Assembly: GCA_015062525.1 (NCBI GenBank)
Contig: SUUM01000002.1
Location: 82,964-146,963, forward strand
Origin: Alphaproteobacteria bacterium
GTDB lineage: Bacteria; Pseudomonadota; Alphaproteobacteria; Rs-D84
Reading direction: 5' to 3'
DNA: 64,000 bases
Below are positions 2,381-61,522 of the stretch, one piece after another (position 1 is the stretch's first letter; every line of letters begins with the position of its first letter). The notes below the pieces were generated by a model. The model did no database searches, was not told the DNA's origin, and saw only the letters and a list, made by a program, of their open reading frames with translations. The position numbers and the translations under genes were made by a program.

Positions 2381-3370
2381 CTAATTATCATTATAACCAA
2401 AATCCCGAGTTTTTAAAACTTCTTTCCAATAATTTTCACGTTCTAGTGCTTTGGTTTTCCCTAACTCTGTCTTTGGAAATATTTCCATTATACTATATTG
2501 AAAGTTATCCTTAATATATTTAATCCCTTTTGTTTTAACTAATTCTTTTAATTTTTTATTTGGATAATCCTTGTTTGTGTCATCATAACCTTTATTCAGA
2601 TAAACAGACCAACGGCCATAAATTCCATTGTTTCCTGTTGCAGAACCTATGTATTGTTTCCCTGTATTCATATCTGTTAACACATATACACCAAACACAT
2701 TACTTAAATTCTCTTTCCAATCTCTGCTGTCTATCACTCGTTTCAAAGAATTATAATCTTTTCTAACGTTTTCATATCCAGTAAACTTTTCTTCCATATT
2801 TAAATATGGTTCTGGTAAAATTTCTGACACAACAACACTATTTATAACATCATCTGATGTATAATAAAATTGTTGGGGCTTGTTTGTGAAATTAACCACT
2901 AAACGACCATTAAACGATTCAAACTCTTTTAATTTTTTTGCGTTAGCATACCTGAAGTGTTCGTGTTTTACTTCATTAAAACCGTCTGCGTTTAAATCAA
3001 TAATTTGGTAAGCACCTATAAATAACCATTTATGAGTATCTATTTCTATAAATTCAAAAACAACATCTTCTAAACTTAACCGTTTCTTTTTTCCTGAACC
3101 CATAGACAATATAGCTTGGTCAAGAAACTTATCCTTATTCAGATACATTGTTTTAAAATCACGTATCTTTCTTACTTTCTTGCCATGTTCCTGAATTTCA
3201 TCTTGCCAAGATATATTAAACCTTAATTTACGTCGTTTGGTTGGGTAATTATTTTCAAAATTATTCTTATTAAGTCCGAATAAGATGTCAACTAGATGTA
3301 ATTCAGTATTCATATTATACCCTTTAATCGTTTGATTCTGGATATGGATAAGTTTCATCATAAATATCAC
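2381..3370 (-). CDS. GIY-YIG nuclease domain protein with an unknown ~200-aa N-terminal domain
   Basis: The C-terminus reads FGVYVLTDMNTGKQYIGSATGNNGIYGRWSVY...ENYWKEVLKTR, a canonical GIY...YIG...R...E...N arrangement. It overlaps the upstream gene by ~47 nt. Confidence 0.65.
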   Translation of the reverse strand: MIFMMKLIHIQNQTIKGYNMNTELHLVDILFGLNKNNFENNYPTKRRKLRFNISWQDEIQEHGKKVRKIRDFKTMYLNKDKFLDQAILSMGSGKKKRLSLEDVVFEFIEIDTHKWLFIGAYQIIDLNADGFNEVKHEHFRYANAKKLKEFESFNGRLVVNFTNKPQQFYYTSDDVINSVVVSEILPEPYLNMEEKFTGYENVRKDYNSLKRVIDSRDWKENLSNVFGVYVLTDMNTGKQYIGSATGNNGIYGRWSVYLNKGYDDTNKDYPNKKLKELVKTKGIKYIKDNFQYSIMEIFPKTELGKTKALERENYWKEVLKTRDFGYNDN

Positions 3371-3953
3371 GTAAATTTTTATTATTATAAGTCCAGTATT
3401 GACCTGGTTGAACGTAATACGGTAAATCCAATAATTCCTTTGTTAAAGCACTTAATGCGTATTCTTTATCATTATATAATACCTTTTTAGGACCAATAAC
3501 ACTAATTTTAATATCTGGGTCTTTTACATAAAACAATTCTGAACCGACAGGAATTCCCATTTCTTCAAAATTAAATTGCGGTCTGTGGAATTGTTTAGCA
3601 GCAGACTTTTCTGCATCAGATATATTACGAAACAAAGCATCCTGAACAGTATTTGTTATTTCACTTGTTGAAAATTCCTTTAATAAAGGGATAACTTGGT
3701 CGGGTGCAACATTGAAAAATTCACGTTTCGGGTTAACACGTTTATCCCGAAAAGCATTATGAATAATTTGTTCAATTGTTGTGCAATCTTTAACTTCACC
3801 AGCCCATAAACATTGAAAAGGGAACGGAACACCAGTTGAATATAATTCGGACATTCTGGCATTCAAATCTTTACGTTGTGTTTTTCCAATTTTTATTAAA
3901 TTCGGCATACCTTCATTAGCCAACACATAAACAATATTATATTTATCAGTCAT
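3324..3953 (-). CDS. T5orf172 / MUG113-type (GIY-YIG-like) domain protein with a C-terminal extension
   Basis: The N-terminus YNIVYVLANEGMPNLIKIGKT...ELYSTGVPFPF...EVKD...EQIIHNAF...REFF matches the conserved T5orf172 pattern (VYVL..KIG.T, STGVP.PF). Confidence 0.65.
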   Translation of the reverse strand: MTDKYNIVYVLANEGMPNLIKIGKTQRKDLNARMSELYSTGVPFPFQCLWAGEVKDCTTIEQIIHNAFRDKRVNPKREFFNVAPDQVIPLLKEFSTSEITNTVQDALFRNISDAEKSAAKQFHRPQFNFEEMGIPVGSELFYVKDPDIKISVIGPKKVLYNDKEYALSALTKELLDLPYYVQPGQYWTYNNKNLRDIYDETYPYPESND

Positions 3954-41918: not shown

Positions 41919-42003
41919 GCGGGTATGGCGAAACTGGTAGACGCACTGGATTTAGGTTCCAGCGGGGCAACCCATAGGAGTTCGACTCTCCTTACCCGCA
42001 CCA
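41919..42003 (+). tRNA. tRNA-Leu (anticodon UAG) with long variable arm
   Basis: 7-bp acceptor stem gcgggta/tacccgc, anticodon loop tuUAGgu, long variable arm, T-loop ttcgact, 3' CCA encoded. Confidence 0.8.
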
Positions 42004-49061: not shown

Positions 49062-49307
49062 ATGAAATATCATCACGCTATTTGGCAATCGATATGCTAT
49101 ATTGCCCAAATTAATAATACAACATGTTCCGGACTTGCCAAAATGTGTGGTCTGGACGCGACAATTTTTAACCCCAGCAAGCGCAAAACAGTCTATGGTC
49201 AGCCCCGCTGGATAAGCACCGCCACCCTGGCCAAAGTCTTAACCACAACAAACATCAGCCCCATTCAATTCGCAGAAATTGTGCAAATGTTTCTGGATGA
49301 AAAATAG
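49062..49307 (+). CDS. Small HTH protein, paralog of 20432-20677
   Basis: CSGLAKMCGLDATIFNPSKRKTVYGQPRWISTATLAKVL aligns with SGLAKCSGLDPTTFNKSKRWSKEGQPRWPSTNSISKIL. Confidence 0.5.
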   Translation: MKYHHAIWQSICYIAQINNTTCSGLAKMCGLDATIFNPSKRKTVYGQPRWISTATLAKVLTTTNISPIQFAEIVQMFLDEK

Positions 49308-49464
49308 GAACGCTCACCTCAGAAATATTATTATGTCGCCGTTTAAAAGCCTGCATTATTCAGGCGTTTAGAACAACCCGCCAAGTAAATTTCTGAAAAA
49401 ACATAATTTAATGAAAAAAACACTTGAAATAGGATTTAATAAGGTATATTATTAGCAACGCTAT

Positions 49465-49502
49465 TCGGGCATAGTTCAGTCGGTAGAACAACGGACTGTT
49501 AA
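49465..49502 (+). pseudogene. Truncated tRNA-Asn, 5' half only (through the anticodon loop)
   Basis: 49444-49502 matches 58942-59000 (promoter region plus tRNA positions 1-38, 2 mismatches) and then diverges. A shared terminator-like hairpin cccagatttctggg+T-run lies at 49538-49556 and 59045-59066. Confidence 0.7.
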
Positions 49503-49625
49503 GCATGAGAGTAAGCCCAACAACAAATTCGAGTTTTGCCCAGATTTCTGGGTTTTTTTGTTGCTTTTTTTCAGTTCTGACGACTTATCACATTACGCTT
49601 AAAACCTGTTAAAACCTGTATGGAT

Positions 49626-49740
49626 ACCGTTTGAAAAACATACATTTTCATACCGCAAACCGATTTGAACCAAATTTTGTGTTCCACGATTTCAATACTG
49701 ATTTCTAGTTGATTTCAATGATGATTTCAACCAGAAAAAT
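49626..49740. repeat. Iteron-like short repeats (gatttcaa x4-5) plus a shared ttgaaaaacatacattt...accgcaaaccgatttgaa motif
   Basis: cgatttgaacc, cgatttcaatactgatttctagttgatttcaatgatgatttcaacc. The ~45-bp motif recurs at 59136-59180, and its first half also at 58818-58836. Confidence 0.55.
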
Positions 49741-49995: not shown

Positions 49996-50595
49996 ATGTT
50001 AGATAAAGCCAAACAGATTGTCCAGTTTATGGATACTGTTGAAAAACTTTGTTATATAAAACGGTTTGCTACCTTAAAAGACAATAACAGGGAACGTGAT
50101 AGTGACCACATAATGAAATTGTCTTTCTTGGTTTTGTTGGTAGCCGATTTTCTTAGTGATAGATTAAATAAAACAAAACTTTTTGAACTTGCTCTTGTTC
50201 ATGATTTAGCTGAAGCGGATGCTGGTGATGTCTCTTATATAGAACAATTTGAGAATAATGAAGCCGTTGAACATAAAAGAGTTAAAGAATTAAATGTTAT
50301 TAAATCGTATCAAAAGCTTTTACCGTCACCACTTAATGATAAAATATATGAATTATTCATGGAGTATGAAACAGGCTGTACCATAGAATCCAAAATTATA
50401 CATAGTTTGGACAAGTTAGAGGGTGACTTGCAGTGTTGTAAGGACCTAAACCTATCGACTTATTGCAATCACAATGCTTTTATATCCCGTATATCCGCAC
50501 TCCAAAAGCATAAATATAGCACCATGACGAATGAGCCGATTATAGAAGCACTGGAAAGATTGATTCTTGAAAAGTCAAAGGATACTTCGAATTAG
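49996..50595 (+). CDS. HD-domain phosphohydrolase (YfbR-like)
   Basis: RDSDHIMKLSFLVLLVADFL ... LVHDLAEADAGDV (H...HD...D metal-ligand pattern). Confidence 0.6.
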   Translation: MLDKAKQIVQFMDTVEKLCYIKRFATLKDNNRERDSDHIMKLSFLVLLVADFLSDRLNKTKLFELALVHDLAEADAGDVSYIEQFENNEAVEHKRVKELNVIKSYQKLLPSPLNDKIYELFMEYETGCTIESKIIHSLDKLEGDLQCCKDLNLSTYCNHNAFISRISALQKHKYSTMTNEPIIEALERLILEKSKDTSN

Positions 50596-50618
50596 TAGAA
50601 ACGAGGAGCTAAACAAGT

Positions 50619-52229
50619 ATGACAAGGTTTACCAATAATTTGACAGGCGATATGGGTATTTCAAAGGAAAGCTATTCTAAATTATTTGGATACTTATCTG
50701 AAGTTTTTGCTCAAAAATTAAAAAAAACAATCCTAAATGAAATCAACAAATTAAGAGAGACAAACAAAGATTATAGACTTCTTGAGGTTTCTGATACACT
50801 TATTGTATCCATCTTTAAGTCCACAAAAAGAGAAGCTGTACGCTTGTGTGTTGGCTATCCTTTTCCGTTAGCTAGCAAGCAGTCTAGAATCTTCTTTTCA
50901 GGATATAAAGTTTCTGTTTTTATCCGTGATGAGCCCGTTAGAAAATTGCAACGGGAATATTTATTCAATTATTTGCAAAAAAACTATTCTGCAAAGCTGA
51001 ACATCATACATTCTACTGGTGATTTCAGAAAAAATTTATCTGGAACAAATAGAAAATTTAATAACAGGTGTTTTTATGTTGATTTGTATGACTTTATTGG
51101 AGACAGTATTATCGGCTTAAAATTTCTAGAGTCACTCAGGAAAACGCTTAGAATTCCAAAGACACGGTGCACTGTATTTTCTAAACATAGCAAACACATC
51201 CCGACTCAATACGCTATCTTTAACTCAACCAAATTTGCCAATTTAGTCAATAATTATGAGTATTCTACAATTATTGTTCCTGCATTGATTGACAATCAGT
51301 TTGATGCGTTTCTTAAAATTTTAAAATCAATTACACTCAAGAATTTCCGAATTATTGTTCCCAGCCGGAATCTATTTCTGACATTTTCTGAGAATAACAG
51401 TGAGATATTCTGGTGTAAATCACGAGACGTTCTTTTCAAGACAAATTCCATAGATAACTACATGGACATAGCATTAAATACTTTTACTGGAGAGCCTATT
51501 TCTGTGCTACCAAAAACAATAAAGGTTAGAAAAATTACAAAAAATGTATTTATAAATCCATTTAGCTCTTTAGAGGGGAAATCTATTTCTGTTGATGATT
51601 GTTCTAAAATTTGTGAACATTTACTATACAATGGCTTTAATGTCTTTGTTTCTGCAGGCTTTCACCAAGAGGAGTACATACAAAAATTAAAAGTTAAGAA
51701 TATAACTTTACTATATGATTCTGGATTTAAGGACCTTTCAGAAAAACTAACAGCACATAACATTGGATTGGTGATTAGCACAGATTCTGGTATTGCTCAT
51801 ATGACAGCGACCCTAGGCATTGCAACAATTGTGATTTATCATAGTTTCTTTTGGGACAGCTGTAGCAAACAATCAATTAGCAACGATGCCCTTGGCGGTT
51901 TTTGTCGAGCGCATTTACCAATGATACCAGTTGTAAATTCCGGGATACTGGATGCAGTAGAAAATATTTACCATCCTGCCATGACGTATAAACAGAAAAA
52001 ATGTATTAGGAGAACATTAAAACGAATGCAGGGAGCTTCAAATAAAACTGTCTTTTCTTTACATAAAGATCTTGTTTCTAAATTCCCGCATTTACATACG
52101 TTCTATTGCCCGGACATGTTACTTAAAAACGTTATAAACAATTCTAACAAAACAGACTCTTGGTCCTTGGTTAGTAATGTATGGCAAAATCTACCTGCTT
52201 ATAAAGTATCCAATTTTACTTTTGTTTAG
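50619..52229 (+). CDS. GT9-family (heptosyltransferase-like) glycosyltransferase with a ~150-aa N-terminal extension
   Basis: CFYVDLYDFIGDSIIGLKFLESLRK (GT9 N-terminal motif) and ISTDSGIAHMTATLGIATIVIY (GT9 C-terminal NDSGPMHLAAALG-like motif). Confidence 0.55.
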   Translation: MTRFTNNLTGDMGISKESYSKLFGYLSEVFAQKLKKTILNEINKLRETNKDYRLLEVSDTLIVSIFKSTKREAVRLCVGYPFPLASKQSRIFFSGYKVSVFIRDEPVRKLQREYLFNYLQKNYSAKLNIIHSTGDFRKNLSGTNRKFNNRCFYVDLYDFIGDSIIGLKFLESLRKTLRIPKTRCTVFSKHSKHIPTQYAIFNSTKFANLVNNYEYSTIIVPALIDNQFDAFLKILKSITLKNFRIIVPSRNLFLTFSENNSEIFWCKSRDVLFKTNSIDNYMDIALNTFTGEPISVLPKTIKVRKITKNVFINPFSSLEGKSISVDDCSKICEHLLYNGFNVFVSAGFHQEEYIQKLKVKNITLLYDSGFKDLSEKLTAHNIGLVISTDSGIAHMTATLGIATIVIYHSFFWDSCSKQSISNDALGGFCRAHLPMIPVVNSGILDAVENIYHPAMTYKQKKCIRRTLKRMQGASNKTVFSLHKDLVSKFPHLHTFYCPDMLLKNVINNSNKTDSWSLVSNVWQNLPAYKVSNFTFV

Positions 52230-53130
52230 ACTGTTTATGGCTTAACATTGGATAAAAACAGCACTCTGTACAGCAGGGACATTTCTCTTTTGTGCCAAGA
52301 TCCTTGATAACCATGGGCTTACTTATAACCCTACCACTATTTATACAAGGTGTCATTGTTCCATCTGGGCGCACGAATACAAATTCGCTACCTGCAAGGC
52401 AATTATCCATTATGTCTATCTGCCCAGTCTTAAAGAAATTGTGTTGAGCTGCAATAAACTTATCATCAGCCTTGAACTTACGAGAGAAGTCCATTATTGT
52501 TGTCACGTCTTCTTCTGGGATACACAAATTAACATCTGAGTTATGATAAAAGTCATCGTTATTATTAGCAAATCTAAAGGTATATGTGCATCCATATTTA
52601 CTTGCTAGTTCCGCAACATGTTCCAAGTTCGCAATGTTGCTATTGTGAGGTGTTATTGTTGTAGAAAACACAACGTTTATCTTCGGCAGCTGTTCTCTGA
52701 TTAGTTTCGCTGTTTGTATAACTGAATCATAGCAATTTATTCCACGTACTTTATGCATATCCTCTGGTCGCCCCTCTATTGATAGACATAAATATTCATT
52801 CTCTATCTTACCGTATACACTTTCCAGCAATGCCAAAACTCTTTTAGGATACGTTCCATTTGAGTTTACCCATAAATGCTTTAAGGCAGGCAGGTTGTCT
52901 ATTATAGACTTTACAACGTCTATTGCATCTTTTCTTAAAACGGGTTCGCCTCCTGATATACTCGCATCAATTATATCCTTGAAATAATCCTGTTTAAACA
53001 AATCGCCAAACTGTTCTGCATTTATTTCTGTTGGGGTAATCCCGGTCTTCCATATGTTGCACATAGTACAACGACTATTACATTTGTTGGTTATGGCAAT
53101 TGTTGCATATTTTACCATTTTACTTCCCAT
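52216..53130 (-). CDS. Radical SAM enzyme with C-terminal SPASM/twitch Cys cluster
   Basis: CNSRCTMCNIW (CxxxCxxC), SGGEP glycine-rich motif, and C-terminal C...C...CPCCTECC. Confidence 0.75.
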   Translation of the reverse strand: MGSKMVKYATIAITNKCNSRCTMCNIWKTGITPTEINAEQFGDLFKQDYFKDIIDASISGGEPVLRKDAIDVVKSIIDNLPALKHLWVNSNGTYPKRVLALLESVYGKIENEYLCLSIEGRPEDMHKVRGINCYDSVIQTAKLIREQLPKINVVFSTTITPHNSNIANLEHVAELASKYGCTYTFRFANNNDDFYHNSDVNLCIPEEDVTTIMDFSRKFKADDKFIAAQHNFFKTGQIDIMDNCLAGSEFVFVRPDGTMTPCINSGRVISKPMVIKDLGTKEKCPCCTECCFYPMLSHKQSKQK

Positions 53131-54181
53131 TTCTTTGTTTTTGCAATTGATGATCGTACATTAGTTTATTCAGTCTTTTTCTGAACTCTATTTCTGGTAG
53201 ATTGATATCCAGATTTATCTTGAAGTTTTCTTTTTCTTCAAGTTCGGATATTTCCTGAGAGTGATAATTTCTTTCTACTTCCTTGCTTATTACATCGTAT
53301 GTATCCTGTTCAGAATGAATAAATTGAATTCCTGTTGACAGCCAATATTCATATGAAATTTTAACAAGCAACCTCAGATCTACCTTATTCTGATTCAATA
53401 GCGGCATTAGTTTCTTTAGCAGCATACGCATTTTGGAGCCTTGCCCCTTATACTTTGGAACAATACCAGAAGCCGCCATCAATACTGACGTATGAACACA
53501 ATCCAATAGTGCGGTCATATTATCTTTATCTAATTTACTATCTGTATAAAATTCTTTGAATACGGGCAAATACAAGCCATTTTTATTAAGTAACCAATTC
53601 AGACGTTCTAACCCCATACCAACCTCAATAATATTATAAGTTTTGGACATGTATGGGAAATCATGCATAAATATTACTTCAGAAATTTGATCTTCGCCCA
53701 GATATAAGGCTAAAAAGGATTCACTGAATTTTTTATTACCCCATTGCGCTTGGTATGTAGAAGTTCTGACATCGACCCTGTCTGGGGTAGCACCATAATT
53801 AACCATCGTTTTTATCAAGTTATTTGCGGACGAGATAAATTGTTCTTCCGTTCCATTGATTGTAACAGCAGCAAAATTTATAAATGAAGTACCAGTCCCC
53901 TGTTTCACATCATTAACATATTGCATCCTGATAACTGGTTGATACACCATGAAATTAGGGACCGTTGATAGGTCCACTCCCTTTGACTCCATACTTTCTA
54001 AACGCTGAATTGCAGAAGTTGTAAACAGTGTTGTTTCCCTTTTATCATCTCTAACAACACTTTCTGGTTTCATTAGATTGTATTCTGGGAAGAATTTGTG
54101 GGGTTCTCCCCCCTTGGCCGAAATGATCGTATTTGGCCATGAAACACTTTTTTCAATCTTTTGCAAATCCAGGTTTATCAT
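53120..54181 (-). CDS. Class II aminoacyl-tRNA-synthetase catalytic-core-like protein (AlaRS/GlyQ-type)
   Basis: IIEVGMGLERLNWLL matches the (D/E)(T/V)GMGLERL element of AlaRS/GlyQ. TLFTTSAIQ resembles the AlaRS FTNAGMNQF region and EVIFMHDF resembles E(I/V)WNLVFMQ. 353 aa, with no tRNA-binding or editing domains. Confidence 0.45.
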   Translation of the reverse strand: MINLDLQKIEKSVSWPNTIISAKGGEPHKFFPEYNLMKPESVVRDDKRETTLFTTSAIQRLESMESKGVDLSTVPNFMVYQPVIRMQYVNDVKQGTGTSFINFAAVTINGTEEQFISSANNLIKTMVNYGATPDRVDVRTSTYQAQWGNKKFSESFLALYLGEDQISEVIFMHDFPYMSKTYNIIEVGMGLERLNWLLNKNGLYLPVFKEFYTDSKLDKDNMTALLDCVHTSVLMAASGIVPKYKGQGSKMRMLLKKLMPLLNQNKVDLRLLVKISYEYWLSTGIQFIHSEQDTYDVISKEVERNYHSQEISELEEKENFKINLDINLPEIEFRKRLNKLMYDHQLQKQRNGK

Positions 54182-55500
54182 TTCATGTGTTCCTTAAAGC
54201 TTGTATATTTTTGCATTTTTATTCGTTCTCTAAGGTCATCAAACGTGTTCTCTATACGAACTTTATTTCTTGTATGCGGAATTATAACATCTTGCCCACC
54301 CATGTAAGGTTGCAGGGCTTTTGGTATTCTTATGTACCCATCTTTTGTCTGATGATTTTCCATCAGTGCAATTACAGCACGTTCAGTTATTGCGGTAGAT
54401 GATATTGTATGTGCAAATGACCTCGTGCCTTTATCCTTTATTTTAATGTTAGCCCGACGAGCTTGGAAATCTGACAAATTTGAATTAGAGTGTGTTTCTT
54501 TATATGTTTGTTGAGAAGGGAACCATGCCTCAGTATCATACTTTTTATATCCAGGTGCCGCTATATCGCCAACACAAACGTTAACCACTCTAAACGGAAT
54601 TTCCAAGGATTTCATTATATCTTCTATGTTTCGTTGACAGAACAACTGCATCATTTCAGAGTCTTCTGGACGACAAAATATAATCTGTTCTTGTTTGTAA
54701 AATTGATGAACTCTGAATATCCCTCGATTAGCTTTTCCCGCAGCCCCAGATTCACTCCTAAAACAAGGAGTCTGTGCAGTATATAACAATGGCAACTTGT
54801 CTGCATCTAGAGTTTCGCCTGAATGATAGGGTACAATTGTTTGTTCAGATGTGCCTATCATGGTCAAATCCCAATCTTTTACATTATACTCTTGGTCCAT
54901 AATAAACGGGTGATACCCTGTAATATATAAGGCCTGTTCTTTTGTTAATAATGGCGTTCCCATTATTTCAAAACCTCGTTTTTCTAACAGATCTTCTGTG
55001 AAAGCAAAGACAGCATTCCTTAATCTAAGGCCATCATTTAGCCAGTAGAAAAATCCTCTGCCAGATATTTTTGTGCCTTTTTCAATATCTAAAATACCTA
55101 ATCTTGTCCCCAATTCATCATGCGACAACACCTTAAATCCTTTTGGAGTTGTATCACCGAATTTATATATTTCTACATTTTCAGTATCATCTTGACCAAC
55201 GGGTACATCTTCTGAGAGGTCGTTTGGGATCATTGCTGACAGAGCTCTCAACTCCTGACTTTTTTGAGCTATTTTGGTTTCTAACTGGGCCAATTTTGGT
55301 TTTTGTTGTTTTGCGGCCTCAATGTTTCTTTCAGCAGCATATTTATTTGCTAACGCACGCTCTTGTTCCACACAAGCTAACAGCTGACGATATTCTTCAT
55401 CTGCTTTGAGCAATGCATCAACATCTAATTTTACTTTTCGTAAAGCAACAAGTTTTCTAAAATAATCAGGATTTTGTCTAATAGCTTTCATGTCTAACAT
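54178..55500 (-). CDS. serS: Seryl-tRNA synthetase (full-length paralog or acquired copy)
   Basis: N-terminal MLDMKAIRQNPDYFRKLVALRKVKLDVDALLKADEEYRQLL (coiled-coil arm), TPCFRSESGAAGKANRGIFRVHQFYKQEQIIF (motif 2/3 region), AT-rich codon usage. ORF open to 55539. Confidence 0.8.
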   Translation of the reverse strand: MLDMKAIRQNPDYFRKLVALRKVKLDVDALLKADEEYRQLLACVEQERALANKYAAERNIEAAKQQKPKLAQLETKIAQKSQELRALSAMIPNDLSEDVPVGQDDTENVEIYKFGDTTPKGFKVLSHDELGTRLGILDIEKGTKISGRGFFYWLNDGLRLRNAVFAFTEDLLEKRGFEIMGTPLLTKEQALYITGYHPFIMDQEYNVKDWDLTMIGTSEQTIVPYHSGETLDADKLPLLYTAQTPCFRSESGAAGKANRGIFRVHQFYKQEQIIFCRPEDSEMMQLFCQRNIEDIMKSLEIPFRVVNVCVGDIAAPGYKKYDTEAWFPSQQTYKETHSNSNLSDFQARRANIKIKDKGTRSFAHTISSTAITERAVIALMENHQTKDGYIRIPKALQPYMGGQDVIIPHTRNKVRIENTFDDLRERIKMQKYTSFKEHMK

Positions 55501-55601
55501 GTATAAACCCCTTGTTAATTGTGGATATTTGTAGCACAAAATTGACAGATGTCAATATATTTGTTTGACAACACGCCTTTTTTTGTATAAATTTATCTCA
55601 A

Positions 55602-56543
55602 ATGGAACAGAAAAATACATTTTTTGCAAATCTGAAAACAAAAATTAAGCTTGCATCTTGGTGGCGACATTTTGTTCACCCACACCAACTATGGACTGCC
55701 ATAAAGTTCGCAGGACACTTTTATACAAAATTTTCTCAGGAAGAAAAAACACAATTTCAAGATGAACTGTCTGTTGTTTTAATTATTAAGGATGAGGCAA
55801 GCTACTTAGCTGAATGGATTGAATATCATAAAATAGTTGGGGTTACTAAGTTTTATATATATGACAATGAGTCTACAGATAATATAAAAGAAATTCTTAA
55901 AAATTACAGGGAGGACGTTGTCTATAAATATTGGCCTGGTAGAGGCCAGCAAATTTCTGCCTATAACGATGCTCTTAAGAATTATAAATTAAAAACTAAA
56001 TGGATGGCATTCATTGATACTGACGAATTCTTGGTACCTGTCCAACATAAAACTATTATTGATGTCATAAATGATATAAAACCAAAATATGGCCTGGGGG
56101 CGAGTTGGGTTAATTATGGTGACAGCGGACATGCGAAGCGAACCCCGGGGTTAACCATAGAACGGTTTACAAAAAGAGCACCATTGGAACATCCTAAAAA
56201 TCTCATGGTGAAATCGATTATCAACCCAAGGGCTGCTTTTATGTTTGCTGTCCATAATGGTTGTTTTCTTGGTTTCAGAAGCGGAATTGATGAAAATGGT
56301 AGAAAAATCGCAGGTTTTAATCTAAAACCCAGCATAAAGAAAATTCGTGTTAATCACTATTTTACAAAAAGTTATGAGGAATTTTTGAATAAAACAAAAC
56401 GTGGCGATGCAGAAACGCCAGACGGTCGTTTCAATAAATCCTTTGATGAGGGGAACACAAATGACATATATGATGATATTATGTTAAAATATGTTCCCGA
56501 AATCAAGGCTAGGCTAGAGAAGAAGGGATTGCTTACTCGATAA
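55602..56543 (+). CDS. GT92/GT2-like glycosyltransferase
   Basis: VVLIIKDEASYLAEWIEYHKIVGVTKFYIYDNESTDN signature. Confidence 0.5.
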   Translation: MEQKNTFFANLKTKIKLASWWRHFVHPHQLWTAIKFAGHFYTKFSQEEKTQFQDELSVVLIIKDEASYLAEWIEYHKIVGVTKFYIYDNESTDNIKEILKNYREDVVYKYWPGRGQQISAYNDALKNYKLKTKWMAFIDTDEFLVPVQHKTIIDVINDIKPKYGLGASWVNYGDSGHAKRTPGLTIERFTKRAPLEHPKNLMVKSIINPRAAFMFAVHNGCFLGFRSGIDENGRKIAGFNLKPSIKKIRVNHYFTKSYEEFLNKTKRGDAETPDGRFNKSFDEGNTNDIYDDIMLKYVPEIKARLEKKGLLTR

Positions 56544-57174
56544 TCTCTACTCCCTCACCAACAGTTTCTAATACATTTCCATCTACATCGAATATCAAGC
56601 CACAATTTTCTGGTATACAATAAACCTTAAACTTGTTTTCTTTTGCCACTTTTTTGACATGCTCAGAAGTTTCAGGCCAATGACACGCAACACATGCACC
56701 TTGTAATAAATTTAGCCCATCTTCTTGTTTATAATCGCCACGTTCATCCATTGCAGCAGCGGTCTTTATTGAACGCCCCATAATGATTGCACCGGCACTG
56801 CCACCATAAACTGGCTTACCCGATTTCATAAACATTATTAACTTTTTATCAAGTCCGTACTTTAATACATTATCTAGAAGTTTAAATGTATTTCCACCGC
56901 CAATATATACAGCATCATAATCATCTAAAATAATATTTTTTCCTGTCTGATCGTTTAGCATTTCTATAGCGATCGTATCACTGTATAACCTAACAACACT
57001 TGTAAACCATTCAAGCCCACCAGTATAATTTCCAGAATCCATCGCCAATGGCACATATAGGATTCTTCCTGTTGCTGGTAACGTATTGAAAAATATCGTA
57101 TCCAAGCGAGCACTATCCTCTGCACCACCGCCACCACCTAGATACAAAGTTGCTTTTTTATTTTCTATCGACAT
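56533..57174 (-). CDS. Peptidase S51 (dipeptidase E / cyanophycinase-like)
   Basis: LYLGGGGG..., VYGGSAGAIIMG (Ser nucleophile GxSAG), later His/Glu. Confidence 0.65.
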   Translation of the reverse strand: MSIENKKATLYLGGGGGAEDSARLDTIFFNTLPATGRILYVPLAMDSGNYTGGLEWFTSVVRLYSDTIAIEMLNDQTGKNIILDDYDAVYIGGGNTFKLLDNVLKYGLDKKLIMFMKSGKPVYGGSAGAIIMGRSIKTAAAMDERGDYKQEDGLNLLQGACVACHWPETSEHVKKVAKENKFKVYCIPENCGLIFDVDGNVLETVGEGVEIIE

Positions 57175-57799
57175 TGTTTTCTCCTTTGTTTTGGTATAAT
57201 TGTGGATTCAAATCTGGATCATTATACATCTTAAATTGATAATACGATGCAATTCTTTTTTTCCCAGACAGATATTCTTTTATTAAGTGTTTTACTGCTT
57301 TGACGAGAGATTTTTTTTGTTCCAACAAAACATCCAGCTTTTCAGAAGCTTGTTTCACTTTTTCAAAGCTGGTGTCGGTTCTTTGTGTTTGTTCGTTCAT
57401 GTGAAAAATTTTAAGGGATAAAATTGATAATCTATCTATCGTCATACCAAGTGTTTCTGTGTTTTGTATATCTTCACATACATCGGGTAATTCTGGGAGT
57501 AATAATTTAGTTATTGCGGTATCTATATTTTCATAGAAATTAGTTCGCATTTGATTAAGCTTATCAATTTTATATTTACAATCTGCAATTACAACAGGAG
57601 GAACATCTTTACGTCTGGCTATGTCTTCTGTATGCCATAACTTAAAGTTCATCAAATGATTTGCTTTAACATAGTTATATAATGTTTCTATCGGAGAACT
57701 GGATACCTCAAACTCCTCAGCCAAATCTTCCTCGTTTACATGCCATAATTCTGTATATTTTTCTTGGGCTTTAGCGATAGTATCTATTATTTCATCCAT
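57158..57799 (-). CDS. Hypothetical protein
   Basis: 213-aa ORF overlapping the S51 gene start; no motif recognised. Confidence 0.4.
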   Translation of the reverse strand: MDEIIDTIAKAQEKYTELWHVNEEDLAEEFEVSSSPIETLYNYVKANHLMNFKLWHTEDIARRKDVPPVVIADCKYKIDKLNQMRTNFYENIDTAITKLLLPELPDVCEDIQNTETLGMTIDRLSILSLKIFHMNEQTQRTDTSFEKVKQASEKLDVLLEQKKSLVKAVKHLIKEYLSGKKRIASYYQFKMYNDPDLNPQLYQNKGENNVDRK

Positions 57800-58135
57800 T
57801 ATATACCTCTCTTATAATTTCATTAACTAGCATATTTTTCTTCATTAGACAATATTTTTATCATTATATGATTTACATTCTGAATATATTTCGCCTTTGG
57901 CCAATCCAGCCAATGATATACGTGTGGTTGAAACAACGTTCTTTAGATTTGCAACCTCATCCAATGTAAAGTATTGCATATCTGCACACTTGTCCCCCTC
58001 GCAGTTGCGAATTGTGCCGGTATATTTTGATACCTCGAAAAAGAAATCAAAAGATTCTGTTCGACTGGCCAGATTGCTGGTGACATGAACACATTTGATA
58101 TCGCAAGTGGCTATTTAGCAAATTATAATAGATTA

Positions 58136-58729
58136 TTATTTTGTGCCATTCTCTGCTTCAATCAACTCATCAATGGCCATTAGCTTATCCTCCTGTTTAG
58201 ACAGACTTTTTTTCACAATAGATAAATCCTGAGTTTTGACATATTTTGCAACATCTTTTGGAATATATTTTAGTTTTTGACCTTCTATTTCTAGCGCTTT
58301 GCGCTGTTTTGTTAACGCCATAACTGTCTGTTTCCTTAAATCACGCAAAAACGCTATTCTTTCCGTTTTTTTTAGATGTAAATATTTTTCATTATTTACT
58401 ATTTCTATTTTAAATGGTTCTAGTTTAGATTGTTTAGCTTTTGCTTTCACCGCTCTTATAGTCCAAATTGGTAAAAGGATCAAGAGCCAATACATCAGTA
58501 AAACTATCGCGGTCGCAGCGATACCAATTCCCACTCTATAAATAGCTTTTTCTCGAACCGGGGCAGGAACAAAACAACATACCAACACCATAAGCAACAA
58601 CCAAAAACTAAATTGCATAATTTTTTTATTTGTCTTCGAGGTTTCGCCATATATTTTATATAAACACCAAAACAAAACAACAAAAGCTACCAAACCTATA
58701 AATTTAAATATGGTTACTAAAACATCCAT
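58136..58729 (-). CDS. Membrane protein with a C-terminal coiled coil, hypothetical
   Basis: Three to four TM helices followed by a Lys/Glu-rich helical tail. Confidence 0.45.
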   Translation of the reverse strand: MDVLVTIFKFIGLVAFVVLFWCLYKIYGETSKTNKKIMQFSFWLLLMVLVCCFVPAPVREKAIYRVGIGIAATAIVLLMYWLLILLPIWTIRAVKAKAKQSKLEPFKIEIVNNEKYLHLKKTERIAFLRDLRKQTVMALTKQRKALEIEGQKLKYIPKDVAKYVKTQDLSIVKKSLSKQEDKLMAIDELIEAENGTK

Positions 58730-58962
58730 GGAAAAACCTCTTATTTTTATTCCTATTCTAGCAACAACATTTGAAAATGTAAATTGAATATATTAGCGAT
58801 TAAATTATTGTTAGCACGGTCGTTTGAAAAACATACATTTACATACACTCTGGGACAAAAGTCGCAGGTTTCTGCGGTTTTGCGGGGTGCATAACACACG
58901 ACAAAATTCTTCTAAAAACGCTTGACTTCTGCATTTTTTTAGTATATTATATGCAACGCTAT

Positions 58963-59038
58963 TCGGGCATAGTTCAGTCGGTAGAACAACGGACTGTTAA
59001 TCCGTATGTCGTTGGTTCGAGTCCAACTGCCCGAGCCA
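58963..59038 (+). tRNA. tRNA-Asn (anticodon GUU)
   Basis: Acceptor tcgggca/tgcccga, D-stem gttc/gaac, anticodon loop cuGUUaa, T-arm gttgg ttcgagt ccaac, CCA encoded; 76 nt. Confidence 0.85.
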
Positions 59039-59279
59039 GATTTAGCCCAGATTTCTGGGCTTTTTTCTTTGTTTCCAGATTTCTAACTTGTTATCATTTT
59101 CCTCATTAAATGATTCTTGTTGACCGTATAGTCATTCAAAAAACATACATTTTTACACCGCAAACCGATTTGAAATGGTTTATTGATATACGTTATAAGA
59201 GTTAATATCAACCCTTATTTTAATGCCAGTTTTCTCTGTTTGTCCTTAATAAACTTTGCCCTAGACACTCGAAACCTTT

Positions 59280-60746
59280 TTATGAGATATAGCCCTGCAC
59301 CACCTCTAGCAACCGAACCATTGCGATAGTGTCCTGGCCACAGTATTCATGCAAATTCTTCATCATTTCTTCGGTTTGTGCTGGCGTTTGTTTACCAACC
59401 ATAAAGTCCATAAATTGATCACTGGCCTCGGTTCCGTTGTGTATTCCCAAATTCTCATACGACATTTCCGGTATGAATGCTGGCAATGTTTGTTTAATCG
59501 ATGCGCTGCCGTTCTGACATGGGCGATACAATCCACGTTCACGAAATGGCATCAGCAAGTCCAACATGCGGTCATTTATCGCCAGCAGTTGATCTGAATA
59601 TTCTGGAAAGTCACGGGCCATTTCTGTATTGCGACCTTGTTCAAATCCCTGGTTATAGACAATGACCGATCCGGTGGTACCGATAGTTTCTATCAGTTTC
59701 TTTATCAAACCCGGTCTTGGATCTGTGCTGGATTCATCGTGCAGATATTCGTAGTGTTCCAGTTCGCCCCCTGGGGTCCGTTGCACATGCAGTGAAAACT
59801 GGAAACAAATCTGCTGATATGGCCTTGAGTTATCAAACATCGGTACCGCTGGCATGATGGACTCGTAGTCCAGGAAATACAGTGGCCACTGCAATTGGTC
59901 TGTAAAGTTGTGCAGAATGTCCGGATTGACGACTTCGGTTCCGGTCAGGTATGCCTCTATGTCGCCTGGGTGCATTTGCTTGATACGTTCCTGTTCCGGT
60001 ATGCCGGTCAGGTCCGCACCGTATGCTGCATACATTTCATCTGCCAGCGCACCCTTAAATGCATTGAATACTGAATAGTCCGGTATATTCCGCCAGCAAT
60101 GGTGTTTGTAAGGACAATCATAGAACTTATTGCACTTGCCCTTGGATATTGCAATCCCCAGTTCTGGGCCGTCTAACACCGCACGAATGCGTTTCACATC
60201 TGCTGCGACTTGTTCCATTGGCTGCAGCTCTTCGTTTACGTTATGCAGCACAAACAGTTCCTGGATATCCAGCGCACCGTGTCTGACGTATTCTGGGTTC
60301 AGGGTAAGTATGTAGCAATCACGTATTTTGACACCACATTGTGTGAATACATATTTCTGGAATGACGCATCAAGATAGTGGTATTCGTGGGGGCTTGTGG
60401 TTGACTTAACCTCTATGATGTCCCATGTGCCGTCATTATTATTACGAAGAATGTCCACCGCACAGTATTCGCCTGTCTTGGTGGACAATGTTGCCTCATA
60501 GATATATGGGTCATCAGCCTTTATGGCATCTTGGGTCTGCCATGCTGCCTCATATTCCCATGGTTTAGCTGTGATGTATCTGCCACCTGGGAACTTATCT
60601 ATGGCCAATCTTCCGATTTCGTGTCCACGTTCCAGGATTGCCATGTTCATTTCAGTCTGGATATCCTTGCGCAGTTTCTTGAACCATATTGCGTTTGGAC
60701 ATTTTACCCCTAATACATAATCTGATTTTGATATTTTGAACATCAC
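59280..60746 (-). CDS. PD-(D/E)XK-fold nuclease-like protein (Cas4/RecB-like N-terminus, DUF2779-like)
   Basis: N-terminal ...SDYVLGVKCPNAIWF... then CAVDILRNNNDGTWDIIEVKSTTS (D...D/E.K core). 488 aa; 4-nt overlap with the downstream gene. Confidence 0.5.
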   Translation of the reverse strand: MMFKISKSDYVLGVKCPNAIWFKKLRKDIQTEMNMAILERGHEIGRLAIDKFPGGRYITAKPWEYEAAWQTQDAIKADDPYIYEATLSTKTGEYCAVDILRNNNDGTWDIIEVKSTTSPHEYHYLDASFQKYVFTQCGVKIRDCYILTLNPEYVRHGALDIQELFVLHNVNEELQPMEQVAADVKRIRAVLDGPELGIAISKGKCNKFYDCPYKHHCWRNIPDYSVFNAFKGALADEMYAAYGADLTGIPEQERIKQMHPGDIEAYLTGTEVVNPDILHNFTDQLQWPLYFLDYESIMPAVPMFDNSRPYQQICFQFSLHVQRTPGGELEHYEYLHDESSTDPRPGLIKKLIETIGTTGSVIVYNQGFEQGRNTEMARDFPEYSDQLLAINDRMLDLLMPFRERGLYRPCQNGSASIKQTLPAFIPEMSYENLGIHNGTEASDQFMDFMVGKQTPAQTEEMMKNLHEYCGQDTIAMVRLLEVVQGYIS

Positions 60747-61522
60747 GAAACCTTTATTCTTCCTTTATAATAGTACCAAAGCAAATGATCAAAACCATTT
60801 TTGCTTATCTTGTTACCTGCTTTTTTTATAATTTTCTCTATTGTTTCCGAATATACCGCATAGTCTTCCAGTTCTTGCTTTTTTACTTCAATTCCATAGT
60901 AATCAATATACAGTGGTAATGCGTTTTTTAATATTGAGTCGTATATTGAGTAATTGTCTTGCTCTTTCTTGCCCTCGAACAGATAAAAGCATGCATAGTG
61001 ACAGAACTTGCTTGCAAACGACTTGTTTTCCCTGGGCCTTATGGTTGCACTAGTTTTCCTTGCAATTATTTCTACCAGTTTATATTTCGTGCCATGTGGG
61101 TCTTGTAGATAATGTAGTAGTTTTTCTAGTGGAATCTTGCATATTCTTTCTGTTATTTCATCACGTCCAATACCGTCTGCGTTCAGATGTGTGGAATTAT
61201 CTCGATCTACAGCTATCACAGCATTTGCTATGATGTTCTTGTATGTTTTTCTGTCCGTCATGTTTTTTTTAATGTAATCCCTTAACTGACACATCCAATA
61301 TGCTGTTGAACCACCTTTGCCATTCTTGTCCGGCCCATACTCTTTGTTGCCGGAGTTTAAGTATGCAGCATCATTTTGAATCATAGCCTCAACCCTGGCC
61401 ACATTGTCTTGGGTTATTTCTACGAGTCCCTTAGTTTCTATGGTCGTGAGCATATATTTTTTTGCTATTTCTAGTTCATTTCCGATCTTATTCATTGATT
61501 GCCTTTCCATTGATTGTGCCAA
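60743..61522 (-). CDS. Hypothetical protein co-transcribed with the PD-(D/E)XK gene
   Basis: 259-aa ORF; no motif recognised. Confidence 0.4.
   Translation of the reverse strand: MAQSMERQSMNKIGNELEIAKKYMLTTIETKGLVEITQDNVARVEAMIQNDAAYLNSGNKEYGPDKNGKGGSTAYWMCQLRDYIKKNMTDRKTYKNIIANAVIAVDRDNSTHLNADGIGRDEITERICKIPLEKLLHYLQDPHGTKYKLVEIIARKTSATIRPRENKSFASKFCHYACFYLFEGKKEQDNYSIYDSILKNALPLYIDYYGIEVKKQELEDYAVYSETIEKIIKKAGNKISKNGFDHLLWYYYKGRIKVS

Follow-up and report, generated by a model that had tools for sequence, protein, structure and literature searches.

Why would a bacterium encode a complete seryl-tRNA synthetase (SerRS) in translational coupling with what looks like a fragment of another synthetase, in the midst of glycosyltransferase genes? 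The question is raised by a gene cassette in the window, i.e. in the 64,000 nucleotides of contig SUUM01000002.1 (positions 82,964 to 146,963) that were analysed as a whole; the host is an uncultured gut alphaproteobacterium. A preliminary description of this DNA treated three minus-strand genes, those for SerRS, for a protein of 353 amino acids (aa) and for a radical S-adenosylmethionine (SAM) enzyme, as one unit, and regarded the S51-family hydrolase encoded nearby as flanking context. The comparative data lead to a different arrangement. The functional core consists of the 353-aa protein, predicted to be a truncated paralogue of alanyl-tRNA synthetase (AlaRS), and the S51 hydrolase; SerRS and the radical SAM enzyme are facultative additions. 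The reaction tentatively favoured here is the transfer of a seryl residue from Ser-tRNA to a sugar-containing acceptor (a glycoconjugate), by analogy with AcmF of ascamycin biosynthesis.

The 353-aa protein is not a canonical AlaRS. Its score was 18.9 bits (E 5.8e-4) against Pfam PF01411, which has a cutoff of 30.3, and 19.7 bits against TIGR00344, the cutoff of which is 457. A profile search of the PDB aligned it with residues 234-371 of E. coli AlaRS (E 1.2e-4). When an AlphaFold2 model built with seven homologues (predicted local distance difference test, pLDDT, 80; predicted template modelling score, pTM, 0.77) was compared by Foldseek, the top 26 matches were all AlaRS catalytic fragments (E 6e-11 to 3e-8, TM-score 0.56-0.66, 13-17% identity), and the alpha subunits of glycyl-tRNA synthetase were far behind (TM-score about 0.35). 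The class II AlaRS catalytic fold is thus modelled together with the arginines of motifs 2 and 3. The match also takes in the helical start of the AlaRS tRNA-recognition domain with its conserved arginine-rich helix, where R252 is invariant and K256 is found in 46 of the 49 family members aligned; the alignment ends near E. coli AlaRS residue 410. No tRNA_SAD match was obtained, and the editing and C-Ala domains were absent in the family scans and in the alignment. Since the AlaRS fold is matched and tRNA-recognition helices are retained, the protein is, according to the model, a truncated AlaRS made of the catalytic domain and the first part of the tRNA-recognition domain, and not a bare catalytic core. 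The earlier assignment to AlaRS-type class II paralogues is thereby upheld by the fold match and the two invariant arginines. The earlier statement that tRNA-binding and editing domains are missing holds for the editing part; the first helices of the recognition domain have been kept. In a metagenome-assembled genome (MAG) from horse faeces, which carries a cassette with 79% identity to that of the window, the orthologue is annotated as a hypothetical protein.

Active-site residues were compared in the 49-member alignment with E. coli AlaRS, using the numbering of the E. coli literature. The motif 2 arginine (E. coli R69) corresponds to R85 and the motif 3 arginine (E. coli gene index 243) to R193, both invariant in 49/49. 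The equivalent of E209 in the Mg/ATP site is E in 36 of the 49 members and Q165 in the window subfamily. The canonical alanine pocket with N212 and D235 is not present in the window protein: the N212 equivalent, E or D in 45 members, is E168 there, and the equivalent of D235, which binds the alpha-amino group, is E186 (D in 33 and E in 16 members). The column of the AlaRS 'PSN' asparagine, which reads the G3:U70 pair, contains N in 24/49 members and Tyr in the window protein; the corresponding Asp column is not reliably alignable.

The family is large. A word-indexed search found 7 close clusters, and an exhaustive profile search was needed to reach the wider family, giving 348 representatives at 50% identity (220 with E of 1e-10 or better), nearly all of them stand-alone proteins of 330-420 aa. 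Scanning a genome collection with a narrower alignment yielded 2 species, and a metagenome scan with a wider alignment added 38 more loci, which were annotated with hidden Markov models from proteins characterised earlier. For co-occurrence counts the loci were dereplicated at 70% identity to 26 lineages, and a gene was counted as a neighbour if it lay within 6 kb of the AlaRS-like gene. The conserved operon of the wider family comprises genes for Ino1 (inositol-phosphate synthase), an archaeal-type protein resembling methionine adenosyltransferase (MAT), the AlaRS-like protein, the S51 hydrolase, a 345-aa glycosyltransferase, a GT4 glycosyltransferase and a PIG-L protein. The S51 gene is a neighbour in 24 of the 26 lineages and the MAT-like gene in 22; lower counts were obtained for the 345-aa glycosyltransferase (12), Ino1 (10), GT4 (9), PIG-L (8), the radical SAM enzyme (6) and SerRS (5).

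The S51 protein of the window scores 84.3 bits against PF03575 (cutoff 23.9), has the Ser-His-Glu triad and shows secondary matches to the glutaminase families GATase_3 and SNO/PdxT. The catalytic motif GGSAGA, the His and the Glu are invariant in 8 diverse orthologues. In one family member (P0120) the AlaRS-like domain is fused to S51 (PF03575, 71.9 bits). Sub-threshold matches suggest two more AlaRS-like fusions, with a GT4 domain (P0056) and with a class I SAM-dependent methyltransferase (P0152); the C-terminal halves of P0080 and P0128 (about 700 aa) gave no detectable family. The nearest outgroup cassettes (L004-L014, L020) share 48% identity with the window cassette. In their L004-type order DUF4254, a 318-aa protein, S51, the AlaRS-like protein and the radical SAM enzyme are followed by a GT9-like gene on the opposite strand and HD_3, and both SerRS and GT92 are missing. 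The 318-aa protein of these cassettes had no match in Pfam, NCBIfam, PADLOC, PHROGs or the PDB and is unrelated to GT92. The radical SAM enzyme of the window, 54% identical to the L004 orthologue, is not orthologous to those of L015, L024 and L022. Because S51 is nearly constant and sometimes fused, and because SerRS and radical SAM genes are sparse and the latter non-orthologous, the AlaRS-like protein and S51 are taken as the core. The earlier view of S51 as context and of the other three genes as a unit is therefore not retained: these three stand together in a second species (L019, the cassette with 79% identity) and, rearranged, in L015 and L024, which confirms co-occurrence elsewhere; they do not form a conserved unit. 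The sugar or glycoconjugate context proposed earlier is consistent throughout the AlaRS-like family.

The MAT-like gene (PF01941) directly precedes the AlaRS-like gene in the 22 lineages that have it (e.g. L031 4499-11664), and its product falls below the NCBIfam MAT cutoffs. As L015 encodes a normal MetK besides it, the MAT-like enzyme may have a pathway-specific role. The other members of the wider operon are also distant from characterised enzymes. The PIG-L proteins score best against MshB, yet with 44-54 bits against a cutoff of 224; Ino1 reaches 352 bits against 638, and the GT4 proteins are generic with respect to the mycothiol family models. No MshC resembling cysteinyl-tRNA synthetase (CysRS) was found in the wider-family operon, and scores stayed below the mycothiol equivalog cutoffs. 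The window cassette lacks Ino1, GT4 and PIG-L. A literature search found no paper describing the AlaRS-like family, its pairing with S51 or its operon. Two unrelated lineages (L004 20136-21047; L052 1-1794) have a canonical alaS 8-9 kb away from the AlaRS-like gene, which may be due to chance.

The SerRS of the window is full length, as described before, with the coiled-coil arm and the class II core: it scores 372.8 bits against TIGR00414 (cutoff 301.65), contains the PF02403 N-terminal arm (43.7 bits) and has the motifs TSE217, FRSE247 and RVHQF263 of a serine-tRNA ligase. SerRS genes accompany the AlaRS-like gene in five arrangements (the window with L019; L015; L024; L056; L061/62), and these SerRS lineages are 31-36% identical to one another. 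In the 201 kb of visible flank, 0.1-0.3 serS genes would be expected by chance, giving a Poisson P(>=5) of 3e-5 to 8e-8, and no other type of aminoacyl-tRNA synthetase (aaRS) recurs within 7 kb of the AlaRS-like gene. The SerRS proteins of the window, L015 and L016 (copy a) form a clade A, with 66-74% identity to each other and 48-53% identity to SerRS of Holosporaceae and alphaproteobacterial MAGs; one reference Holosporaceae SerRS is encoded in the housekeeping context murG-murC-murB-ddl-ftsQAZ-serS. Clade B (L016 copy b, L017) is 61-65% identical to the housekeeping type. In L016 the clade A and clade B genes lie 3.3 kb apart, and clade A as a whole is embedded in three different biosynthetic-looking clusters. 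The GC content at third codon positions (GC3) of the window serS is 0.277, compared with 0.26-0.34 in the rest of the low-GC island that carries it and 0.35-0.50 in host genes. Since its clade coexists with a housekeeping-type SerRS in L016 and its codon composition is island-like, the window SerRS most likely serves as an accessory copy rather than in housekeeping, as was also supposed in the preliminary description. The database contains an identical SerRS (MBE6460624.1) labelled 'MAG: Alphaproteobacteria bacterium'; a comparison of accession ranges disclosed no second SerRS of the same MAG among the SerRS matches listed.

The SerRS loci of L016 (418-9740) and L017 (5041-13766) deserve a separate remark. 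They contain Lactamase_B, shikimate-dehydrogenase-like, AP_endonuc_2 and GFO/IDH/MocA genes, a set reminiscent of inositol or sugar oxidation, together with a 473-aa protein (nucleotidyltransferase-like GTADKFSDLD motif), a 475-aa radical SAM protein and GT92. The two SerRS genes of L016 are 54% identical to each other. As no AlaRS-like gene is present, these loci represent a second, different type of SerRS-associated cluster.

The ascamycin system AcmD/AcmF/AcmE of Streptomyces sp. 80H647 offers a precedent (PMC12945691). AcmF resembles an AlaRS cut down to the aminoacylation and tRNA-recognition domains, and it moves alanine from Ala-tRNA to a nucleoside sulfamate that sits in what was once the adenylate pocket; AcmD is the full-length AlaRS of the cluster that makes Ala-tRNA, and the hydrolase AcmE reverses the step (PMC12945691). 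AcmF carries the substitutions N219Q and D232E, Glu232 being essential; it is described as having lost most of the ATP-binding residues, but keeps the motif 2 arginine (Arg93) (PMC12945691). Seryl transfer is favoured here because the window offers the same three roles as AcmD, AcmF and AcmE. The truncated AlaRS paralogue and the S51 Ser-His-Glu hydrolase would constitute a two-protein catalytic module. The AlaRS-like protein would no longer charge tRNA; it would bind aminoacyl-tRNA through the retained helices that contact the acceptor stem and hand the amino acid on, at an amine or hydroxyl group, to an acceptor lying in the former adenylate pocket. The donor would be Ser-tRNA(Ser), supplied like that of AcmD by the accessory SerRS coupled upstream, and relatives without SerRS would draw it from the housekeeping pool. 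The GT9-like/DUF4254 pair might assemble the acceptor together with the GT92 glycosyltransferase and the HD_3 phosphohydrolase, and the radical SAM enzyme of SPASM/twitch type would carry out an oxidation or a rearrangement on it. S51 would either relay the aminoacyl group through an acyl-enzyme intermediate or trim or remove it, as the counterpart of AcmE. Where the module of the wider family is accompanied by inositol-phosphate synthase, GT4 and a PIG-L deacetylase, the acceptor may be a pseudodisaccharide of the glucosamine (GlcN)-inositol type, by a logic like that of mycothiol. Gene content, fold, residue conservation, co-occurrence statistics, island borders and the status of the SerRS clade as paralogues are results of the analysis; the dependence on tRNA, serine as the amino acid, the nature of the acceptor, what S51 does and where in the cell the product ends up are inferred. 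The core of lipopolysaccharide (LPS) would be a candidate target, judging from the GT9-like similarity and the linkage of DUF4254 genes to RfaF.

Seryl transfer is consistent with the retained tRNA-recognition helices (R252 and K256), with the replacement, in the AlaRS-like family or the window subfamily, of both active-site positions highlighted in AcmF, and with the repeated recruitment of SerRS (5/26, P <= 3e-5) with serS coupled through the shared ATGA. A number of observations weigh against it. Throughout the family the motif 2 and 3 arginines are conserved, and so is the acidic residue at E209; AcmF is described as having lost most of its ATP-binding residues, so that an ATP-dependent adenylating ligase is equally compatible with the conservation found here. 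SerRS is not found nearby in 21 of the 26 lineages. tRNA(Ser) does not have the G3:U70 pair, and tRNA(Ala) could be the donor instead, because about half of the family keeps the 'PSN' asparagine for G3:U70. The AcmF-like spacing (R-x6-W-x3-F; E-x2-Q-x12-E) was present in 0/163 family members, AcmF being likened here by its description. That a hydrolase should be fused to a transferase fits badly with a plain reversal of the AcmE type, and none of the models accounts for the fusion. The near-constant MAT-like partner is explained neither by seryl transfer nor by any other model, and no transporter, carrier protein or known acceptor-forming enzyme that would fix the product was found.

The main rival, suited to the conserved arginines of the ATP site, is a ligase of the MshC kind: the AlaRS-like protein would activate serine, alanine or glycine with ATP and join it to an amino sugar with no tRNA involved, and SerRS would have a loose connection at most, such as by regulation or the supply of serine. 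This is possible, if rather unlikely. All 49 diverse members have R85 and R193, with E or Q at the Mg/ATP position and D or E where the alpha-amino group is bound, the wider operon with Ino1, GT4 and PIG-L (best against MshB) mirrors the reaction order of MshA, MshB and MshC, and the 21 lineages without nearby SerRS pose no difficulty. Such a ligase leaves unexplained, however, the repeated and statistically significant recruitment of SerRS with its translational coupling, as well as the retention of the tRNA-recognition helices; in addition, the N212 equivalent is replaced throughout the family, and this Asn is needed for canonical adenylate formation in AlaRS (PMC12945691). An adenylating core might also act on the carboxylate of a substrate, S51 delivering the ammonia or forming the amide. 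AsnA is an amidoligase of this class II aaRS-like kind, the S51 fold resembles class I glutamine amidotransferases, S51 has the GATase_3 and SNO/PdxT matches, the pairing with S51 is obligate and sometimes a fusion, and the arginines of the ATP site are conserved. Nevertheless, the S51 nucleophile is Ser and not Cys, no S51 protein is known to act as a glutaminase, and the recruitment of SerRS and the tRNA-recognition helices are again unaccounted for, which makes an amidoligase very improbable.

Three further explanations concern mainly SerRS or the radical SAM enzyme. Duplicated aaRS genes in clusters often mark inhibitors of these enzymes (albomycin, mupirocin). The cluster could accordingly make a seryl-adenylate mimic, a 'Trojan horse' like albomycin or ascamycin, to which the clade A SerRS would be insensitive while possibly also supplying the donor; S51 would serve as a peptidase in processing or immunity. 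The presence of clade A in three biosynthetic-looking clusters, one of them with a housekeeping-type SerRS as well, would agree with this, and so would the AcmF acceptor, a nucleoside in the adenylate pocket, the HD_3 nucleotidase of the window and the adenosine-handling MAT-like enzyme of the wider family. Self-resistance is nonetheless unlikely: exporter, siderophore or peptide carrier genes are not present, the closest SerRS-less cassettes (L004-L014) would be left without immunity, and the spread of the operon in uncultured environmental bacteria suggests a physiological product over an antibiotic. It is distinctly unlikely that SerRS is simply the sole, horizontally replaced housekeeping enzyme of the organism and that its place within the cassette is without functional significance. 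The enzyme does look fully functional (intact arm and motifs, score above the TIGR00414 cutoff), the matches listed included no second SerRS of the MAG, and the closest cassettes do without SerRS. However, that comparison covered listed matches only and was not exhaustive, the adjacency recurs in five arrangements, clade A stands beside a housekeeping-type copy in L016, and serS shows both the GC3 typical of the island and translational coupling to the AlaRS-like gene. The maturation of a ribosomally synthesised and post-translationally modified peptide (RiPP), with a SPASM-type radical SAM enzyme modifying the peptide and the aaRS-like proteins extending or decorating it by the logic of peptide aminoacyl-tRNA ligases (PEARL), could appeal to the seven-Cys C-terminal cluster and to partial matches of the radical SAM enzyme to the peptide maturases ScmE, WgkB and StsB. 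It is extremely improbable, as the five intergenic gaps contain no plausible precursor gene, the radical SAM enzyme occurs in only 6 of 26 lineages and is non-orthologous between architectures, LanB, PqqD or RiPP recognition element (RRE)-type partners are absent, and its family scores are far below the cutoffs.

The layout of the cassette is given in Table 1. All eight genes listed in the preliminary description were recovered at the same coordinates by an open reading frame (ORF) listing and family scans, and HD_3, GT92 and S51, named there as flanking genes, pass the Pfam cutoffs.

Table 1. Features of the cassette and of its borders in the window.
Feature	Positions	Strand	Basis
Left border repeat, decayed copy of the tRNA-Asn locus	49416-49670	+	repeat families D1, D3, D4; alignment
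HD_3 / YfbR-like HD phosphohydrolase (5'-nucleotidase-like)	49996-50595	+	PF13023 82 bits, PF12917 42 bits
GT9-like glycosyltransferase, 536 aa	50619-52229	+	PF01075 20.3 bits (cutoff 22)
Radical SAM enzyme, SPASM/twitch-like type, 304 aa (300 aa from second ATG)	52216-53130	-	PF04055
Predicted truncated AlaRS paralogue, 353 aa	53120-54181	-	AlphaFold2 model and Foldseek, profile search, residue conservation
SerRS, full length, clade A, 440 aa	54178-55500 (TTG-start ORF to 55539)	-	TIGR00414
Divergent intergenic region between serS and the GT92 gene, promoter-like TTGACA-N17-TACAAA and AAGGGG	55501-55601		read from sequence
GT92/GT2-type (GT-A fold) glycosyltransferase	55602-56543	+	PF01697 99 bits, PF13704 63 bits
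S51-family (PepE/cyanophycinase-like) Ser-His-Glu hydrolase	56533-57174	-	PF03575
DUF4254 protein	57158-57799	-	PF14063 156 bits
Predicted membrane protein, 197 aa, inside the island	58136-58729	-	low GC, GC3 0.278
Right border repeat, functional tRNA-Asn(GTT) locus with promoter and terminator	58914-59174	+	D1, D3, D4; alignment

The coupling of the SerRS, 353-aa and radical SAM genes on the minus strand was confirmed. The stop codon of serS and the start codon of the 353-aa gene share ATGA, a 4-nt overlap, and the stop of the 353-aa gene overlaps the first ATG of the radical SAM gene by 11 nt; a second ATG, at which the JGI gene call starts, follows 1 nt past this stop. The GT9-like gene converges on the radical SAM gene with a 14-nt overlap. 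The likely start of SerRS is the ATG at 55500 behind AAGGGG, as in the JGI gene call, and not the TTG at 55539. As the second species (L019) has the identical gene order, the arrangement is not due to chance. A scan of the island for promoters and terminators gave nothing above the shuffled expectation, so the promoter-like elements before serS are a consensus match only.

The radical SAM assignment made earlier is supported by the motif CX3CX2C (C17, C21, C24) and by the PF04055 core (56.3 bits against a cutoff of 29.5). Invariant in six orthologues are Cys 17, 21, 24, 115, 181, 244, 262, 284, 286, 287, 290 and 291, including the C-terminal set of seven. The SPASM model PF13186 gave only E 0.025, and only in the L004 orthologue; the best partial NCBIfam matches were ScmE, a twitch-domain radical SAM family, WgkB and StsB, all with scores far below their cutoffs. 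A precursor peptide, the search for which had been proposed earlier, was not apparent: no credible candidate ORF exists in the five intergenic gaps of the island.

The GT9-like, DUF4254 and HD_3 genes are conserved in the alphaproteobacterial cassettes, DUF4254 being present in L004-L014 and an HD_3 orthologue in L004 and L008, and GT92 is specific to the SerRS-bearing version, L004-L014 carrying the unrelated 318-aa protein instead. The L004 orthologue of the GT9-like protein passes PF01075 (29 bits, cutoff 22). In both proteins this profile of 247 positions is matched only centrally, at 106-209 in the window protein and at 74-211 in the L004 orthologue; the match covers only the nucleotide-sugar-binding half. 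DUF4254 is known only for the linkage of its gene to that of the heptosyltransferase RfaF (PMC9425974). The 197-aa membrane protein has only weak KwaA-like and PigN-like matches and is absent from L004-type cassettes. A role of the cassette in anti-phage defence was considered and rejected, PADLOC giving only a weak pVip-like match for the radical SAM enzyme and the weak KwaA-like one.

The region is a horizontally acquired low-GC island of about 9.5 kb bracketed by tRNA-Asn sequences. Its GC content is 0.33-0.36 over a segment of this length, against 0.42-0.47 in the flanks, and the border repeats D1, D3 and D4 are spaced by the same distance. The right copy contains the tRNA-Asn(GTT) gene at 58963-59038 (ARAGORN; Rfam 74.5 bits). 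The left copy shares its promoter with the right one and is identical to it through the 5' half of the tRNA, as far as the anticodon loop; the 3' half has diverged, and the terminator hairpin and 36-nt block that follow are again those of the right copy. There Rfam gives only 18 bits for tRNA (E 0.5, 49465-49544) and ARAGORN finds none; since its 3' half has decayed, the left copy is a pseudo-tRNA. The cassettes of relatives occupy other chromosomal sites. In L011-L014 the cassette has a serine recombinase on one side and a terminase/DUF5681/ParB-methylase block on the other, and SIR2_2 genes are close by. Beyond the genes already named, only a large serine recombinase recurs next to the AlaRS-like family, in 4 lineages (L011 1353-2972, L023, L031, L047). 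A phage-cargo origin was rejected, as the family has no relative in IMG/VR viral contigs and no PHROG match; these neighbours are kept as a sign of mobility only.

Other segments of the window are also of note. The low-GC segment 36004-41133 (GC 0.34-0.39), beside tRNA-Leu at 41919-42003, encodes two GT4-type glycosyltransferases, a 655-aa protein with a haloacid dehalogenase (HAD)-hydrolase domain and a GT2 protein, and looks like another horizontally acquired glycosylation island next to a tRNA gene. The segment 14-6000 (GC about 0.30) is probably the remnant of a mobile element, with a phage-type integrase (14-1567), a GIY-YIG nuclease-domain protein (2381-3370) and a T5orf172/MUG113 protein (3324-3953). 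Directly past tRNA-Asn, the region 59280-61522 encodes a DUF2779 protein with a weak Cas4-like match and a 259-aa protein without detectable family, and the matching JGI contig (L001 1-4902) continues beyond 61522 with a 1066-aa PLD-SNF2 helicase; together they look like a defence island. Between secG and the left border of the island there is an 81-aa ORF (49062-49307), which the JGI annotation treats as a gene.

Synthetase paralogues acting outside translation, such as MshC, AcmF, GluQRS, EpmA and AsnA, have each opened new biochemistry. The present case adds an unannotated family of truncated AlaRS with at least 348 clusters, an obligate hydrolase, fusions, a conserved operon and independent recruitment of SerRS. 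Aminoacylation through a synthetase paralogue is of a known kind; this AlaRS-like family, its pairing with S51 and its operon are, as far as the literature search shows, undescribed. If the reaction depends on tRNA, chemistry of the AcmF type would extend from one Streptomyces antibiotic to many uncultured bacteria, gut symbionts included, and a new aminoacylated glycoconjugate or low-molecular-weight metabolite may be expected. If it depends on ATP, the enzyme would be a class II analogue of MshC. A wider and rather doubtful interpretation is that the AlaRS-like/S51 pair belongs to a widespread undescribed pathway making a mycothiol-type molecule, i.e. an amino acid, probably serine, on GlcN-inositol, with the SAM-synthetase-like enzyme as a third partner. 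In gut Alphaproteobacteria the module would then have been placed on a mobile island, provided with a dedicated SerRS paralogue and retargeted to a heptose/LPS-type glycan. The MAT-like partner hints that SAM or an adenosyl compound has taken the place of the adenylate in its pocket; for the class II fold such chemistry would be new. That the AlaRS-like family stands for new chemistry or for a new class of aminoacylated inositol-sugar metabolites is, taken by itself, speculative and somewhat unlikely.

Among the systems with which the cassette can be compared, canonical AlaRS shares with the 353-aa protein the class II AlaRS-type fold, the GxGxER motif 3 and the motif 2 arginine, and differs from it by the low identity mentioned above, the editing and C-Ala domains and an amino-acid pocket that has been remodelled in the 353-aa protein. 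Dedicated full-length SerRS copies are known from biosynthetic clusters as VlmL, with VlmA, in the valanimycin pathway and as AbmK in that of albomycin. Like, probably, the window SerRS, they are second SerRS copies in a pathway cluster, serving the supply of Ser-tRNA or seryl-adenylate or else resistance; their transferase partners VlmA and AbmF, however, belong to other families. In the pathways MshA/MshB/MshC and BshA/BshB/BshC a GT4 glycosyltransferase is followed by a PIG-L-family deacetylase and then by a ligase, an aaRS paralogue, that attaches an amino acid to the sugar amine so freed. The wider-family operon with Ino1, GT4 and a PIG-L protein closest to MshB is similar in logic only, given scores far below the mycothiol family cutoffs. 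Unlike MshC, a class I CysRS paralogue, the enzyme considered here is a class II AlaRS paralogue, and S51 and the MAT-like enzyme are extra constant partners.

The closest parallel remains ascamycin, in spite of several differences. The motif 2 and 3 arginines are fully conserved in the window family and the E209 equivalent is E in 36/49 members (Q in the window subfamily), whereas AcmF is described as lacking most ATP-binding residues, though with its motif 2 arginine in place; the D235 equivalent is still D in the greater part of the family. In place of an AlaRS such as AcmD there is a SerRS, and only in 5/26 lineages. AcmE is a secreted alpha/beta hydrolase, in contrast to the cytoplasmic S51 protein, which is obligately adjacent and sometimes fused. 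The context consists of glycosyltransferases, a radical SAM enzyme and, in the wider family, inositol enzymes, as opposed to a nucleoside sulfamate pathway, and the hosts are uncultured gut Alphaproteobacteria and environmental bacteria instead of Streptomyces. The preliminary description, which knew of no system with this composition, has to be amended in this respect, since AcmD/AcmF/AcmE shares the same logic (PMC12945691). In both cases the cluster encodes a full-length aaRS, a truncated AlaRS-like protein and a hydrolase; in both, the truncation spares the aminoacylation domain and tRNA recognition, of which the window protein keeps the first part; and both have replacements at the equivalents of N212 and D235, N by E168 and D by E186 in the window protein, the D-to-E exchange being identical.

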